DNA of 64,000 nucleotides from Treponemataceae bacterium (lineage in GTDB: Bacteria; Spirochaetota; Spirochaetia; Treponematales; Rectinemataceae). Made by a program: the position numbers. Below, piece by piece: positions 18,001 through 27,000 of this stretch (the first letter of the stretch is position 1; every line of letters begins with the position of its first letter). The stretch spans positions 32,001 through 96,000 of the forward strand of contig CAXXGJ010000025.1 of NCBI GenBank assembly GCA_963677895.2, given 5' to 3'.

Positions 18001-21000
18001 CCGCAGCGCTATGGCGATGGGGTACAGCGATGAGAGGATGCTCATGCCGAATATCCACAGGAAGGCCCGCAGGGCGGCTCCCGCGGAAATGGAGGGCACC
18101 AGTTTTTTCCCCGCGAATATGGCCTCGAAGAAGAGGTTGGGCGCCTCGATGCCCGACCGACGCAAGACCATCAGCGCGAGGTAGCCGAGGAAGACCCCGG
18201 CGAGGCCGGCGATGATCGCTAGAAAACTGGTCTCGAGGAGAATCATCCTGCGGATGAAGCGTTTTTTCGCGCCCAGGGCGCGCAGAGTGCCTATTTCGGG
18301 CACCCGTTCGCTTATCGATACGACGAGGACGTTCATCGTGATCATGATGACGATGACGGCCACGATGGAGACCATGAGATCGAAGACGAGGCGGATGGTC
18401 ACCGCCGTTCTCGCCACCGCGCCCGCCCCGGCTACCCAATCCTGGACATGGACGCTCTGGTCCAGCCCCGCGGCGAAGGTCTTGAGCCCGTCCATGAAAC
18501 GCGCGGCGTTCACGCCTGAGCCAAGCCTTATGAGGATGAACTGCCATGCGGGCTCGGGGGGCGCGGACAGCGCGGCCACTCCGGACGCGGCGGCAGCGTC
18601 TTCAGCTACGACGTCTTCAACCGCGGCGTTTTTCGCCGCGACGTCTTTAGCCGCGACGGCGCTCAGGAAGGGATCGACGAAGCCGCCGCCCTCCGAGACG
18701 ATGCCCTCTTTCTCGGGATCGGCGATGACATCGGCCCCTGCTTCGTCGCCGAAAAGCGCCTCGGGGTCGAAGGCTTCGACGAATTCAGCCTGCTTCTCGC
18801 TGAGGACGATCTGGCCGTCGCGCAGGCTCGCGAAGCCCAGAAGGTCGCGCATCGTGTCGGCGTCGACGAGGGATATCTTCGCCAGTTCCTGGCTGCTCTG
18901 GTTAAACCTCACGACGCCAGCGACTTCCACTTCCCGGATGACGGTGCCGGCGGTGTCGCCCAAGGCGCTCAGGACGATCTTTTCGCCAGCTCCGATCTTT
19001 TTGCCCGCCGCCCTCGAGAGCATCTGGGCTGACATTTCGGATATGATGATCCAAGCTTGACCCCCGCCCGACGGCCATTGGCCTTCCACGAGGCTGATGT
19101 TGCCCGAAAAGAAATTCCTGTAATCGGCGATGTCAACGCCGAAGGCCGAGCCTTGACCGATAACCTGTTCGCCCAAGCCCATGGCCACCTGTCCGCTCAG
19201 CATGGGAAGCGTCGCCGCGACATTCCTGTCGGCGGACAATCGTTTCTGAGTAGCTCGAAAAGGCCGCGATATGAGGGATGACTTCCTCCCCGCCTGCCGT
19301 TTCGCCGAAAATCGTCGTCGGGAAGCTCGTGGGCCCCGTCACCATGACGTCGCCCGTATAGCCCTCCACGAACATCTTTTTCAAGCCGCCGATAGCCGTA
19401 TCGATGAGGGAATTCCCGACGAAGAGCACGGCTATCCCGAGGCACATGATCGTGCCCAGGAGGATGCTCTTCGCCTTGTGCAGGAAAAGATTGCCGTAGG
19501 CCATTCGAAACAGGATCATGAAGACGCCTTTTCTTCGGCCCGGTAATTTTCGACGATCTTTCCGTCCTTGAGCCTAATGACATGGTCGGCGATGTCGACG
19601 ATGCCCTGATCGTGGGTGCTGAATATGAATGTCGTCCCGAACTCGCGGTTCATGCGCTTCATCAGGGCGAGAATGCTCTCGCCCGTCGCCGAATCGAGGT
19701 TGGCGGTCGGCTCGTCGGCGAGGACTATGGGCGGCCTCATGACGAGGGCCCGGGCTATGGCGATCCTCTGGCGCTGGCCGCCGGAAAGCTCGGCCGGTTT
19801 ATGCTTCATCCTGTCGGCGAGCCCCACGCTCTCGATGAGATGGTCCACCCACTCCTGTCGCTCGTTTTTGGGCATATCGAGGTCAGAGCCGTCGAGGAGG
19901 GCCGGAAGCTCGACATTTTCGCGTATGTTGAGGACGGGGATGAGGTTGAAGGTCTGAAAAATGAAGCCGATGCCCTTATGGCGCAGCGCGGTGAGTTTTT
20001 CGTCGCCGAGGCTGTCGGTGCGCTGGCCGAGGATGGTCACGCTGCCCGAGCTGGCCGTGTCGACGCAGCCGATGAGATTCAGCACCGTGGTCTTTCCCGA
20101 ACCGGAGGGGCCGGCGATCGATATGAAATCGCCCTTGAGGATATCGAAGCTCACGCCCTGCAGGGCGAGGACCTCGGTTTTTCCCAGGGCATAGCTTTTA
20201 TGAACATCGTTGAGCCGCACGACATACTGATTTTGTCCGTCCACGAATTCCTCCAGGCCATTTCAAAAAACGAAGCCTTACGATCAGGTAGAGCGTATAC
20301 CGACCGCGCCTTTTATTCCATGAAACATTTATTAAAAAATATAACAACGGCGCGCCGCGGCAGCCCTAGCCGCTCGCTATCGCGCCGCCCTACCCGCTTG
20401 CGCCGCCGCCCGCCAATGCGCCTCCGGTGACTTTCAATAAAAGCGTTTATTCCTATATACTATTGCCATTATGGCATATGAAAACTTGCAGGGGTTTGTC
20501 TCGGCCCTCGAATCGGCGGGCGAGCTGAGGCGCGTGAAGGTCGAGGTCGACCCCATCCTCGAGATAACGGAAATCGCCGACAGGGTGATGCGCGACGGCG
20601 GTCCCGGCCCTCCTTTTCGAAAAGGTGAAGGGATCGGAATGGCCCCTCCTCATCAACGCGATGGGATCGGAATCGCGGATGGCCATGGCCCTCGGCGCCG
20701 AAAGCCTCGACGCCAAGTCGAAGGAAATCGAGGATCTTCTCGGCTGGGCCTGGAAACAGGTCCGGGGCTTCTCCCTTTTCACCGCCATTCCCGGCGCCCT
20801 CCCCAAGCTGCCCATAGCGAAATCCCTCCTGCCCAAAAAAGTCGGCCACCCCCTGTGCAGGCAGGTCATCGACGACGAGGCGGGCTTCGACAGCCTCCCC
20901 GTCCTCAAGTGCTGGCCGGGAGACGGAGGGCGCTTCTTCACCCTGCCCGTCGTCTGCACGATGGACCCGGAAACGGGCGCCCAGAACTGGGGCATGTACA

Positions 21001-24000: not shown

Positions 24001-27000
24001 TGGTCCTTGCGGGACAGACCGCCGGCGCCGGCATGCCCGAACCATTCCTGACGACGGCCAGAGTGCGCGGGGCAAAAATCATCGCCACCACCGACGACTA
24101 CGGACTCGGCGCGGGCATCCTCGCCTTTTCACAGAACGCCCTGGCATCCAAGCAGGGGGAGATCACCAAACTCTACAAGGCTTACTGGAAGGCTGCACAG
24201 AAAATCAACGCCGACCCCGACGCGTACCGCCCGCTCCTGGTAAAGAAAGCGGGATTTTCGGAGGAAGCCGCCAAGGCCTTTATTTTCGTGGTATACAAGA
24301 AACCCCGGCTTCCCTCCATGGGAGACCTGGAGCGCGCCGCCTCCTGGCTGACGGCCAAAGGTCTTCTAAAGAAGACGATCGATCCCGCCTCGCTCCTGGA
24401 AAAGCGCCCCATCGAAGGATTCTGACAGCGGTCCATGATGAACTACCCCATGGTCAAGCTCGATAAAGTCTCGTTTTCCTATCGCCTCAAGGAGAGAGCC
24501 CTCCCCGTCCTGTCGGATATCAGCGTGAACTTCGAGCGCGGCTCCATAACGGCCATCGTCGGCCGCTCCGGCTGCGGCAAGACAAGCCTCCTGCGCATCA
24601 TCGCCGGGCTTTCCTCCCCTACCGAGGGCTGGGTGTCCGTGGGCGGCGAAGCGGGCGGCGCGATCAGGGCCAAGACGGCCCTCATCTTTCAGGACTACGG
24701 GCTTCTTCCCTGGGCAAGCGTTCAGGCCAACGCCGAACTGGGCTTGAGAACGAGGGGAATGAGCGCGGCCGAACGCAGGTCCAGAGTGAACCCCATCCTC
24801 GCCGAGCTGGGTCTCGAACCTTTTGCCAGGCTTTATCCCGCGAGACTCTCGGGCGGAATGCGGCAACGCGTCGCCGTGGCTCGCGCCCTCGCATCGGACA
24901 GCGACCTTCTCCTTCTGGACGAACCATTCTCCAGCCTCGATGCCCTCACGAGGGAATCCCTACAGGAAACCCTTCTCGAAACCCAGCGCAGGCACGGCAC
25001 CACGGTTATTCTCGTCACGCACTCCATCGAGGAAGCGGCCTATCTGGCTGACACAATCTACATCCTGGACGGAAAGAACCCCTCCACCCTTTCGGCCCGC
25101 TTCGATACGGACCGAAGACGGAGCGCCTTCCCCGCCCGCCCCTCCGGAATCGCTTCGGATGGTACCGACGCTTCGCCCGCGGACTCGGTTCCGGCATCCC
25201 GGAATTCCCCGACATCGGACGCGGCGGCGACCTCCTACAGGGAAAGCAGCCATTACTTTTCGAATGTGGCGACGCTCCGCCATCTCTTCGCCCATCCCCC
25301 CGGCGGAGCGGAGAAGACGGAGAGCGAAATCCTGGAGGATGGCTCGCCGTCCCCCGCCCATGTCCGGGCGATCGGCTTCATGGCGAGACTCGGCAAGATT
25401 GTCCTGGCGGCTTCGGCGATCGCCATTCTCTGGGCCGGCCTTTCCTCCATTCTCAAAAAGCCCTTCCTGCCCTCTCCAATTCTCGCGGCGAGCCGTTTCG
25501 GCGAAAAAATCGCCGACGGAACGCTTTTCGTCCACATCGGCGCATCGCTGAGACGTATTTTCCTTGCCCTGATCGTCGCCGGCCCTCCCGCCTGGGCGCT
25601 CGGCCTGCTTTCGGGGCGCGTTAAGGCGGCGGATACAATAGCATCGCCCCTCGTCTACCTTCTCCACCCCCTGCCTAAAGTGGCTTTCCTGCCGATATTG
25701 ATGCTGTTCTTCGGACTGGGGGACGCCTCCAAGGTGGCGCTCATGGGAATGGTTATCTTCGGACAGCTTTTCGTCGGAGGAAGGGACTCGGCCAAGGCAA
25801 TATCCTCATCGCTCATCGATACGGTCCGTTCATTGGGTGTCCGCGGCGGAGGAATTCTGCGCTATGCCATCCTGCCCGCTACCCTTCCATCCCTTCTATC
25901 GTCGCTGAGGATCAGCCTCGGCACGGCCATCGCCGTGCTTTTTCTGTCCGAAACCTTCGCGTCGATGGACGGCCTTGGCTGGTACATCATGGATTCATGG
26001 TCCCGAGTGGACTATCCCGACATGTACGCGGCCATCATCGCCCTCTCCCTCGTCGGCCTCGTACTCTACCTCGCCCTGGACGCCCTCGAAATCCTCGCCC
26101 TCCGCTGGCGCGAAACCGACTGAGATTTTCTACTCGGCCGCCTCGGGCAGCACACGCACGAGCGATTCGTTGAAACCGATCGACACGGGCTCGCCTTCGC
26201 CGGCAATGCGCTTTTCAGCCGGATCGTCAACCTGCACGAGAATTTCCCCGTACTGTGTCTTCACGAAGACCTCCACGCTCGACCCCAGATAGACCCGCGC
26301 CGAAACCGTACCCTCGGCCAATCCCTGCCCCGGGCTGTGGAGACGCAGCGATTCGGGCCTCGCCATGATCACCGCCTTGTCCCCCGCGGCTAGCCCATCC
26401 GCCTTATGCCCCGCTTTGACCTTTCTTCCGGCGAGAGAGCACTGACAGGAACCGTCCGCCTCGACCGCGTCCAGCGTCACCGGGAAAAACGCCACCTTGC
26501 CCACGAATCCGGCCACGAAGACCGAATTGGGTTTTTCGTAGATATCGCTGGGCGAGCCGATCTGCCTGACGAGGCCGTTTTTCATGACGATAACTCTGTC
26601 CGAAAGACTCATGGCTTCGATCCTGTCGTGCGTGACGTAAATCGCCGTAATGCCGAGCGTTTTCTGGATTTTCCGGATCTCTATGCGCATCTGCTCGCGC
26701 AGGAGGGCGTCCAGATTGGAGAGCGGCTCGTCGAGGAGGAGGACCTGGGGCTCGACGACAAGACATCGAGCGAGAGCGACGCGCTGCTGCTGGCCGCCAG
26801 AAAGCCTCCCCGGCGAGCGCTTGGCCAGGTCGGCCAGGCCCACCAGATCGAGGGCTTTCTTCACCCTTTCCTGAATTTCGGATGCCGGCCGCTTGCGGAT
26901 CTTGAGTCCGTAGGCCACGTTTTCCTCGACATTGAAATGGGGGAAAAGCCCATAGGACTGAAAAACCGTCGCCGTCTCGCGGCCGTTGGGCGGCAGATAG

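Follow-up and report, generated by a model that had tools for sequence, protein, structure and literature searches.

Judged from its gene content, this anaerobic spirochaete is unable to make the ring of menaquinone, yet it retains the enzymes that finish the molecule. We think it fairly probable that the operon encoding them serves to salvage the naphthoquinone ring, importing 1,4-dihydroxy-6-naphthoate or its 2-isomer and delivering it directly to prenylation, and its pump is a strong candidate for the long-predicted importer of menaquinone (vitamin K2) precursors. An mqnL-mqnP-mqnM operon with an ABC importer had been reported in the genome-wide survey's note, and all five genes were found at that place, strand and order. 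On the + strand of the window (the whole stretch of 64,000 nucleotides analysed), mqnL, for a UbiD-family decarboxylase of the TIGR03701 type (20471..21930), overlaps by 14 nt the gene for an MqnP-type polyprenyltransferase of the UbiA family (21917..22840; 307 aa, PF01040). These are followed by mqnM/ubiX for a flavin prenyltransferase (22852..23451; 199 aa, PF02441), the gene for an ABC substrate-binding protein of the NitT/TauT (SsuA/NMT1) class, the candidate dihydroxynaphthoate receptor (23433..24425; PF09084/PF13379), and a gene fusing an N-terminal ABC ATPase to a C-terminal permease (24435..26123; 562 aa, PF00005 at 26-165, PF00528 at 388-551). Neighbors overlap or lie 0-15 nt apart, and the combination of binding protein, ATPase, and PF00528 permease in one operon is that of a NitT/TauT-class ABC importer. 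The AT-rich intergenic region upstream (20245..20470) separates the operon from a divergent, unrelated ABC exporter operon. It contains TATACT (20456-20461) 9 nt 5' of the mqnL ATG, on which a consensus promoter scan made no call; a Shine-Dalgarno sequence is absent, the start is possibly leaderless, and the final ~45 nt before the ATG are almost the same in this genome and in its two closest relatives, G001 and G002.

The survey's best NCBIfam matches, TIGR03701 for MqnL and NF041586 for MqnP, were recovered again, the latter at 258 bits and thus below its cut-off of 430. None of the three lineage-specific MqnP models (NF041584/5/6) was passed (258/430, 182/420, and 178/375), but these models are narrow, since the MqnP of a Heliobacterium mqnEAC operon fails as well (338.6 vs. 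430). The protein does exceed the general TIGR01475 cut-off (257 vs. 181), scores 104 on the proteobacterial UbiA model TIGR01474 (cut-off 275), and has no MenA model among its 25 profile matches, which places it nearer MqnP/ubiA_other than UbiA or MenA. It is the single PF01040 match, and so the sole UbiA-family gene, of the genome, and its substrate is presumed to be 1,4-dihydroxy-6-naphthoate. MqnM, encoded beside the UbiD-family gene, exceeds the TIGR00421 cut-off (162.9 vs. 108.9), as expected of UbiX/MqnM, whose product is the prFMN cofactor for MqnL.

The survey had also noted a frameshift in mqnL. The gene is indeed broken, but by two +1 insertions (20602 and 21195) rather than one, which leave three fragments in three frames (matching TIGR03701 positions 2-44, 46-236, and 241-432). 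We therefore identified MqnL through the intact, 96-99% identical orthologue in G001, which scores 593.6 bits against the equivalog cut-off of 495.9. Both insertions are absent from G001, G002, and contigs of public runs X1, X4, and X5 (run X3 does not cover the sites), so they are probably assembly errors. It is unlikely that the insertions are real and the module is decaying in this genome only, in a strain no longer making quinone. Such a reading could draw on the window's version of 20572-21900, which is matched by none of the run contigs examined and differs from run X1 by ~39 substitutions between identical flanks. However, there is a third +1 at 19243, likewise uncompensated, no others were seen in the coding DNA of the ~54 kb aligned to G001, and the remaining four operon genes are intact; the confinement of +1 insertions to these three sites points to a single poorly assembled patch.

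The early futalosine genes, which the survey had described as missing from the genome and its relatives, could not be found here either. PF02621 (MqnA/D) has no match anywhere in the genome, tblastn with Heliobacterium MqnA, MqnC, and MqnE found nothing there, and none of the 57 MqnL genomes of the order encodes MqnA, C, D, or E, so that the complete pathway (MqnA, MqnC, MqnD or MqnZ, MqnE) is absent. The classical pathway (MenF, MenD, MenC, MenB, MenA) is likewise absent from this genome: searches with E. coli MenC, MenD, MenF, and MenH found nothing, MenB and MenE gave weak paralogue matches only (23-27%), and no MenA/DmkA was found. The survey's statement that no MenG exceeds the cut-off stands (best match 42 bits vs. 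158). Because the genome is 92.8% complete and 5.5% contaminated, these absences rest on its relatives. In our sample of 151 genomes of the order, 50 of which exceed the TIGR03701 cut-off of 495.9, MqnA/D and MqnC/E each occur in one genome, both on a single 1.3-kb contig of G251, which has neither MqnL nor the pump; MenB occurs in three, all of genus g13 and none with MqnL, and is therefore found in none of the 57. G257, a single contig that is 99% complete, has an intact operon and lacks MqnA/D, MqnC, MenB, and MenG. The product is probably demethylmenaquinone, because MenG is absent from 54 of the 57 MqnL genomes (found in 3).

The binding protein probably starts at ATG 23466, behind AGGAG, and its N-terminus reads like a signal peptide. 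It scores 80 bits on TIGR01728 (the SsuA aliphatic-sulfonate family, cut-off 163.5), with distant homologues at 90-108, and it is only 13-20% identical to any solved chain. Its predicted model (pLDDT 97.6) best matches SsuA, CmpA, TauA, and PqqT (Z 26-29 over 273-284 residues, 13-17% identity). It thus shares its fold, ATPase, and PF00528 permease with importers such as SsuABC, TauABC, NrtABCD/CmpABCD, ThiXYZ, and PqqT, but differs from them in its low identity, in its own conserved motifs (FxSAxERD, ISxNT, RLE, LPEP), and in the fusion of permease to prenyltransferase in many genomes. The proteins nearest in fold have small anions or cofactors as ligands; one of them, PqqT (Z 26), binds the quinone cofactor PQQ and is a precedent for such a ligand in this class. 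There is also a more distant likeness to MqnA and MqnD (Z about 16-19, 9-14% identity), PF02621 futalosine enzymes that have a binding-protein fold; unlike these, our protein has a signal-peptide-like leader, a cognate ATPase-permease, and no PF02621 match, and MqnC/E, the suppliers of the MqnD substrate, are absent. Among 27 fetched loci holding both halves, ATPase and permease form a single ORF in 10, all confined to one subclade of the family, and are separate genes in the others.

New evidence connects the pump with the substrate of the prenyltransferase. Of the 151 genomes of the order, 73 carry the binding protein; among the 57 MqnL genomes it is present in 55, and the two without it are 87-88% complete. 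Every one of the 73 also has a UbiA-family gene, a tally that takes in non-quinone members, for example a probable heme O synthase (L237), and the 56 genomes that lack the family all lack the binding protein; related genomes are not independent, so such counts overstate the number of events. The survey had found the binding-protein gene behind mqnP-ubiX in 18 of 20 loci and UbiA beside NMT1 in 63 genomes. Our counts come from samples other than those behind its figures (20 of 31 genomes and the like), with mqnP-mqnM immediately 5' of the binding-protein gene in 25 of 30 fetched loci and a UbiA-family gene within 11 kb in 55 of the 73 carriers. Further, a scan of genome contigs found permease and MqnP as one in-frame ORF in 26 of 80 loci (25 genomes, mostly Desulfobacterota). 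Pfam detected both domains in 9/9 of these fusions tested, and among the homologues listed all 120 had both (52-93% identity). In each of the proteins P0167 and P0412, the binding domain is joined to one resembling MenA. An mqnP, mqnL, or mqnM gene (32) or menG (3) lies within 7 kb of the pump in 35 of the 80 loci, in varied gene orders and phyla; 45 have no quinone gene within that distance, 13 of which (12 from Selenomonas/Centipeda) carry a binding protein without a nearby ATPase or permease. Among MqnL-less spirochaete carriers, a MenA-like gene, mostly below MenA cut-offs, lies 0.8-1.2 kb from the pump in nine genomes and within 8 kb in two more, and other lineages have the same pump next to MenA-like genes and MenG. 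The pump is not limited to ring auxotrophs: MqnA/D occurs in 29 of 50 non-spirochaete carriers (including 10 of 20 fusion genomes tested) and MenB in three spirochaete carriers, so it may also recapture a producer's own leaked precursor.

A consumer for the quinone is encoded as well. Ndh2-DoxX is present in 56 of the 57 MqnL genomes, and its gene adjoins mqnL in two (G028, G036). In 4/4 loci read (G000, the genome analysed here, and G001, G013, G021), the gene for an Ndh2 of 669 aa, which matches DoxX weakly and which we take to resemble Listeria Ndh2, is followed by a HepT-like gene; an Ndh2 with a C-terminal membrane domain beside a polyprenyl synthase is also a feature of flavin-based extracellular electron transfer loci. 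The conserved Ndh2-DoxX/HepT pair is probably the user of demethylmenaquinone. Together with the permease-MqnP fusions, the MenA-binding-protein fusion, and the MenA-like and MenG neighbors, it favors the survey's importer hypothesis. We propose that the periplasmic binding protein catches soluble dihydroxynaphthoate shed by neighbors, the likeliest compound being 1,4-dihydroxy-6-naphthoate, which MqnD makes, and that the ATPase-permease brings it into the cell, an import direction suggested by the binding-protein architecture. The HepT-like synthase would supply the polyprenyl chain that MqnP joins to the ring, and MqnL would strip the carboxyl using the prFMN that MqnM provides; whether prenylation or decarboxylation comes first is left open in the available part of PMC4746308. 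Without MenG, the pathway would end at demethylmenaquinone, feeding mainly the Ndh2-DoxX NADH dehydrogenase encoded beside hepT; electrons might leave the quinol through a DsrMK-like pair and a flavocytochrome/tetraheme cytochrome.

Other cargoes must be weighed against this proposal. The same pump might instead import 1,4-dihydroxy-2-naphthoate (DHNA), or both isomers, which MqnP and MqnL would convert to demethylmenaquinone (DMK) in two separate steps, prenylation and decarboxylation; one family would then serve both menaquinone (MK) pathways. We regard this as unlikely. In its favor, the family stands beside MenA-like genes in the 11 spirochaetes and is fused to MenA in P0167, G315 (L192) has changed its partner to MenA while nested in the mqn-linked clade with most motif residues kept, and the available parts of PMC10746273 and PMC5738691 document bacterial DHNA release. 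Against it, D46Q, S108M, and I113S (mature numbering) are substitutions peculiar to the main MenA-linked clade at otherwise conserved positions, which suggests different ligands; MqnL exceeds the futalosine decarboxylase cut-off; and MenA alone would be a simpler route for DHNA.

It is less plausible still that the cargo is a benzoate-type ring (4-hydroxybenzoate, gentisate, or similar) made by a UbiA/UbiD/UbiX-like trio into a prenylated phenol or novel benzoquinone, as in ubiquinone/plastoquinone synthesis. The database name of the fusion proteins ("4-hydroxybenzoate polyprenyltransferase"), the sub-threshold MqnP scores, and the absence of MenG would fit, but the decarboxylase passes TIGR03701 and falls far short of the UbiD cut-off (410.8 vs. 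788), the prenyltransferase scores higher on MqnP than on proteobacterial UbiA, UbiB was found in 0/5 genomes checked, and the sole strong UbiA matches in MqnA/D genomes are orthologues of this MqnP. Moreover, three enzymes are enough for dihydroxynaphthoate, because it requires no hydroxylase. Most improbable is import of a non-ring need of the enzymes (riboflavin/FMN to make prFMN, a metal, or part of thiamine or B12, in the manner of other NMT1-class importers), with the ring coming from an unknown route. The thiamine-precursor binders ThiY/Thi5 are among the fold relatives, two Heliobacterium loci have a B12 riboswitch upstream, and in G235 the pump is followed by a TPP riboswitch and thi genes. 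However, the B12 switch precedes a decayed ORF, presumably a thiC/bzaA fragment, and is absent in the related locus L103; the G235 switch comes after the permease, at the head of the thi operon; and the 24 loci scanned held no further riboswitches. The fusion partner of the permease is MqnP rather than MqnL or MqnM, and the family also pairs with MenA, which needs no prFMN.

The salvage of a dihydroxynaphthoate has partial precedents. According to PMC4746308, as far as its available text goes, mqnP, mqnL, and mqnM were confined to genomes encoding the complete Mqn pathway; the same three enzyme families (PMC4746308; TIGR03701, NF041584-6) form one operon here, with MqnL passing its equivalog cut-off, but in 57 genomes that lack MqnA/C/D/E and mostly MenG too, and they come with an ABC importer of their own. 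Using late steps only on a neighbor's ring resembles DHNA salvage by MenA (with or without MenG) in menaquinone auxotrophs, and Ndh2 with a heptaprenyl-synthase-like gene and DMK as likely product recalls the Ndh2/DmkA/DmkB module of Listeria and Lactiplantibacillus (for both, available parts of PMC4746308, PMC5738691, and PMC10746273). Unlike the MenA/DmkA systems, this one uses MqnP, MqnL, and MqnM and has a genetically linked candidate transporter. The sections available state that importers of soluble menaquinone precursors must exist but are unidentified (PMC4746308, PMC5738691) and leave the quinone uptake route unidentified (PMC10746273). Our literature search found no account of such a menaquinone-ring importer operon and, in the partial texts available, no demonstration that bacteria release 1,4-dihydroxy-6-naphthoate at a useful level.

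More broadly, we see an even chance that this NitT/TauT subfamily, spread over Spirochaetota, Desulfobacterota, Bacillota, Chloroflexota, and some archaea, represents the first high-affinity importer devoted to precursors of the menaquinone ring, with isomer-specific clades (6-naphthoate with MqnP, 2-naphthoate with MenA) and fusions that hand the ring directly to the prenyltransferase, and that "fermentative" spirochaete lineages run a demethylmenaquinone/Ndh2 chain on cross-fed futalosine intermediates. The permease-prenyltransferase fusion is by itself an unusual transporter-enzyme design, and a candidate soluble binding protein makes the importer question a simple binding assay. If the proposal is true, quinone cross-feeding extends from the classical to the futalosine pathway, and whole-pathway genome surveys miss quinone users, such as ~38% (57/151) of the sampled genomes of this order. 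Salvage of this kind could explain why some anaerobes are hard to culture and suggest a medium supplement for them.

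The five genes of the operon lie on the + strand of the window, overlapping or separated by gaps within 15 nt: a UbiD-family gene (mqnL, 20471-21930) that runs in three frames; a UbiA-family gene of mqnP type (21917-22840); ubiX (mqnM, 22852-23451); an SsuA/NMT1-class binding protein (23433-24425, with a likely start at 23466); and one ORF that encodes both the ATPase and the permease domain (24435-26123). The binding protein, ATPase, and permease are referred to below as the pump. The genome-wide survey's note had described a late-step menaquinone operon with a linked ABC importer, and its place and gene order are borne out. 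Both ends are flanked by unrelated operons on the opposite strand, and a scan for promoters and terminators did no better than shuffled sequence (promoters, 1 vs. 1.3; terminators, 10 vs. 6.4 ± 2.4). Riboswitch control of the pump was rejected, as none of 24 scanned loci has a riboswitch controlling it. The B12 riboswitch of two Heliobacterium loci (L101:6318-6488 and L102:5854-6024) belongs to a decayed ORF just upstream of the pump, truncated, presumably thiC/bzaA-like, and more eroded in H. chlorum; a TPP switch in genome G235 sits downstream of the pump.

The intact decarboxylase of G001, one of the two closest relatives, scored 593.6 against the MqnL model TIGR03701 (cut-off 495.9) and 410.8 against UbiD (cut-off 788). 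The prenyltransferase of the genome under study (G000) matched MqnP-type models best (258 bits, against 104 for proteobacterial UbiA), with only the general model TIGR01475 passed; failure at the MqnP cut-offs says little, because the MqnP of Heliobacterium, from a menG-mqnP-mqnE-mqnA-mqnC operon, likewise falls under them. This mqnP-type gene is the one UbiA-family gene in each of G000, G001, and G002, the other closest relative. Chorismate synthase and polyprenyl synthases are present in G000 (92.8% complete, 5.5% contaminated), and a search of that genome found no MqnA/D, MqnC, MqnE, MenA, MenC, MenD, MenF, MenH, MenG, or UbiB, in agreement with the survey's view that the early mqn genes are absent. 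The names given to homologues indicate the family Rectinemataceae. Weak PF02621 matches occur in the related genomes G013 (35.6 bits) and G021 (30.1 bits); the G013 match was rejected as MqnA/D, being another SsuA-like binding protein. Contig C19 of G000 carries a third polyprenyl synthase with proteobacterial-looking genes, which we take to be PilS/PilR-like; as G001, G002, G013, and G021 have only two polyprenyl synthase loci each, C19 is probably contamination.

The frame of mqnL is broken in the assembly, as had been noted, but by two +1 insertions relative to G001 and G002, at 20602 and 21195, and not by a single event. Read literally, they would mean true pseudogenisation in G000. Both are absent from contigs assembled from public read runs X1, X4, and X5, and the sites fall outside the coverage of X3; the X1 assembly matches the window exactly except within 20572-21900, where ~39 positions differ. 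A third uncompensated coding insertion lies 1.4 kb off, at 19243, and no other was seen in ~54 kb aligned to G001. The three insertions look like one badly assembled patch, and real decay of the gene is very unlikely; programmed frameshifting was ruled out, since close relatives have a continuous gene. The ABC exporter permease beside the operon (17968-19519, - strand) is split too, by the +1 insertion near 19243, again as compared with G001 and G002.

The operon is a genuine and conserved module in which late menaquinone steps are linked with an ABC importer. We fetched 30 loci around the top binding-protein matches of 41 genomes: mqnP-mqnM immediately precede the binding protein in 25, and ATPase and permease are fused in just 10 of the 27 loci having both halves. 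An even sample of 151 genomes of the order, each at least 85% complete, holds the binding protein in 73, a UbiA-family gene in 95 (including non-quinone members, e.g., at locus L237), and MqnL in 57 (58 matches minus G291, a full-length 217-bit other UbiD). The binding protein is found in 55/57 MqnL genomes; every one of its 73 carriers also has a UbiA-family gene, and the 56 genomes that lack such a gene all lack the binding protein. We gave no weight to a Fisher test on this 73/95/151 table because related genomes are not independent. MqnC/E and MqnA/D each occur in 1/151, both on one 1.3-kb contig (G251:C86, locus L177) of a genome without MqnL or pump; its mqnC and mqnA fragments are the sole early futalosine genes in the sample, and the contig is likely misbinned. 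MenB occurs in three genomes, all of genus g13 and none with MqnL. The survey's statement that no MenG exceeds its cut-off holds for G000; in the sample of the order MenG is present in 14 genomes, only three of them among the 57 with MqnL. Across a phylum-wide sample the binding protein is rare (9/201 at E ≤ 1e-20). Arrangements vary: in family f5 (L053, L054, L056, L057) the permease and ATPase are encoded on the other strand and converge with the binding-protein gene, and in part of genus g32 (G243, locus L195; G289, G316, G312, G275) ~8 kb of other genes separate mqnM from the binding protein, an insert that in G243 includes an 1847-aa lipoprotein-like ORF.

Distant homologues were collected by a contig scan, from which the best 80 of 232 loci were analyzed. 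In 26 of these (25 genomes, mostly Desulfobacterota) a single ORF of ~545 aa encodes permease and MqnP together, with both domains confirmed by Pfam in 9/9 tested, and a protein search listed at least 120 fusion homologues, every one with both domains, from sources named as Desulfatirhabdium, Desulfatiglans, Syntrophorhabdaceae, Methanomassiliicoccus, and a spirochaete. One further sequence, P0167, is a fusion of a MenA-like domain with the binding domain, and there is one similar case. Quinone genes lie within 7 kb of the pump in 35 of the best 80 loci (mqnP/L/M in 32, menG in three), in several gene orders across Desulfobacterota, Bacillota, Chloroflexota, and Spirochaetota; the other 45 have none within that distance, and 13 of those have a binding protein without ATPase or permease. 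In 12 Selenomonas/Centipeda loci (among L161-L176) a lone binding protein, with no ATPase or permease within 7 kb, precedes polyamine-synthesis-like genes; Anaerovibrio and two others retain the full pump.

Among 18 spirochaete carriers without MqnL, a MenA-like gene lies within 8 kb in 11, at 0.8-1.2 kb in nine of them, and in genus g13 menG adjoins the pump. That genus (G235, G273, G314; L190, L191, L229, L238) comprises Rectinemataceae with classical men genes, menG, and menA (menB in three genomes; menF/D/E seen in G235); its pump is preceded by a TetR gene and related to Chloroflexota copies. A tree of 141 binding proteins groups most MenA-linked ones in a single clade whose conserved residues are changed (D46Q, S108M, I113S) and places the MenA-linked copy of G315 among the mqn-linked ones; as deep nodes are poorly supported, we claim no order of transfers. 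MenA requires neither UbiD nor prFMN, which leaves the naphthoate ring as the common denominator of the pump's partners. Three lines of evidence, namely fusion, cross-phylum neighborhood, and partner switching, link the pump to the quinone prenyltransferase's substrate.

The binding-protein model (pLDDT 97.6) aligns with SsuA, CmpA, TauA, and PqqT, the receptor for PQQ, at Z 26-29 and 13-17% identity; among solved structures it has no close relative (best E 1.8e-18), and identity with SsuA was rejected. A role as non-orthologous MqnD was rejected as well: PF02621 and MqnC/E are lacking, and Z against MqnA/MqnD is only about 19, well under the 26-29 seen with transport receptors. R45, R142, D14, D60, and E/D158 are nearly invariant and may contact the ligand's carboxylate and hydroxyls. 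The pump is predicted, with good confidence, to carry a dihydroxynaphthoate for prenylation, and 1,4-dihydroxy-6-naphthoate is the probable isomer; that it instead takes 1,4-dihydroxy-2-naphthoate (DHNA), or both, we consider unlikely.

From 79 non-spirochaete carriers we picked 50, of which 27 have and 23 lack adjacent quinone genes. All have a UbiA-family gene, and 29 have MqnA/D (11/27 and 18/23, respectively), so the pump is not confined to auxotrophs. The 20 fusion genomes divide into 10 with MqnA/D and 10 without; MqnC was absent in 5/5 tested (four MqnA/D-less fusion genomes and one Clostridia genome, all without completeness values). In producers the pump probably supplements supply or recaptures a leaky intermediate, and this would permit repeated loss of the early genes. 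Loci L184 (Heliobacterium mobile), L187, and L189 hold mqnE-mqnA-mqnC clusters with one PF02621 gene per genome, so MqnD seems to be missing; MqnZ, a PF01048 protein, is proposed as its substitute in the accessible part of PMC4746308.

As MenG is absent, the product should be demethylmenaquinone, named in the available text of PMC10746273 as the carrier of a Listeria/Enterococcus electron-transfer route built with DmkA/DmkB. With E. coli queries, neither complex I membrane arm nor cytochrome bd was found in G000. A 669-aa type II NADH dehydrogenase (Ndh2) that ends in a membrane domain, a weak DoxX match (C2:253527-255533), is followed by a HepT-like polyprenyl synthase (C2:252378-253355), an arrangement retained in G001, G013, and G021. 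Ndh2-DoxX occurs in 85/151 genomes, 56/57 with MqnL, and 67/73 carriers; it is absent from G235, G273, and G314, and in G028 and G036 ndh2 adjoins mqnL divergently. Two loci of G000 may serve as quinol sinks: a NarI-like/DsrK-like pair at C25:142988-144988 and, at C38:99893-102415, an exported flavoprotein accompanied by a tetraheme cytochrome c. A split-Soret-like cytochrome c lies with ResB/CcsA maturation genes at C25:180156-182814, and the flavocytochrome-like reductase and tetraheme cytochrome stand beside tat-like genes (C38:99893-104372); these loci point to redox chemistry in the periplasm of a spirochaete that is supposedly fermentative.

The module would work like DHNA salvage via MenA, but with futalosine-pathway enzymes and a candidate transporter, and unlike the complete futalosine pathway it holds the late steps only. 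We found no account of operon, pump, or fusion in the open-access literature. In the accessible part of PMC4746308, mqnP/L/M are named and reported solely from genomes that have the entire pathway, and importers of soluble menaquinone precursors are predicted to exist and still to be annotated; the text available for PMC5738691 describes such transporters as not described, that for PMC10746273 leaves quinone uptake unidentified, and the main text of PMC13386864 has no discussion of import. The module makes this published question, the importer of menaquinone precursors, directly testable.
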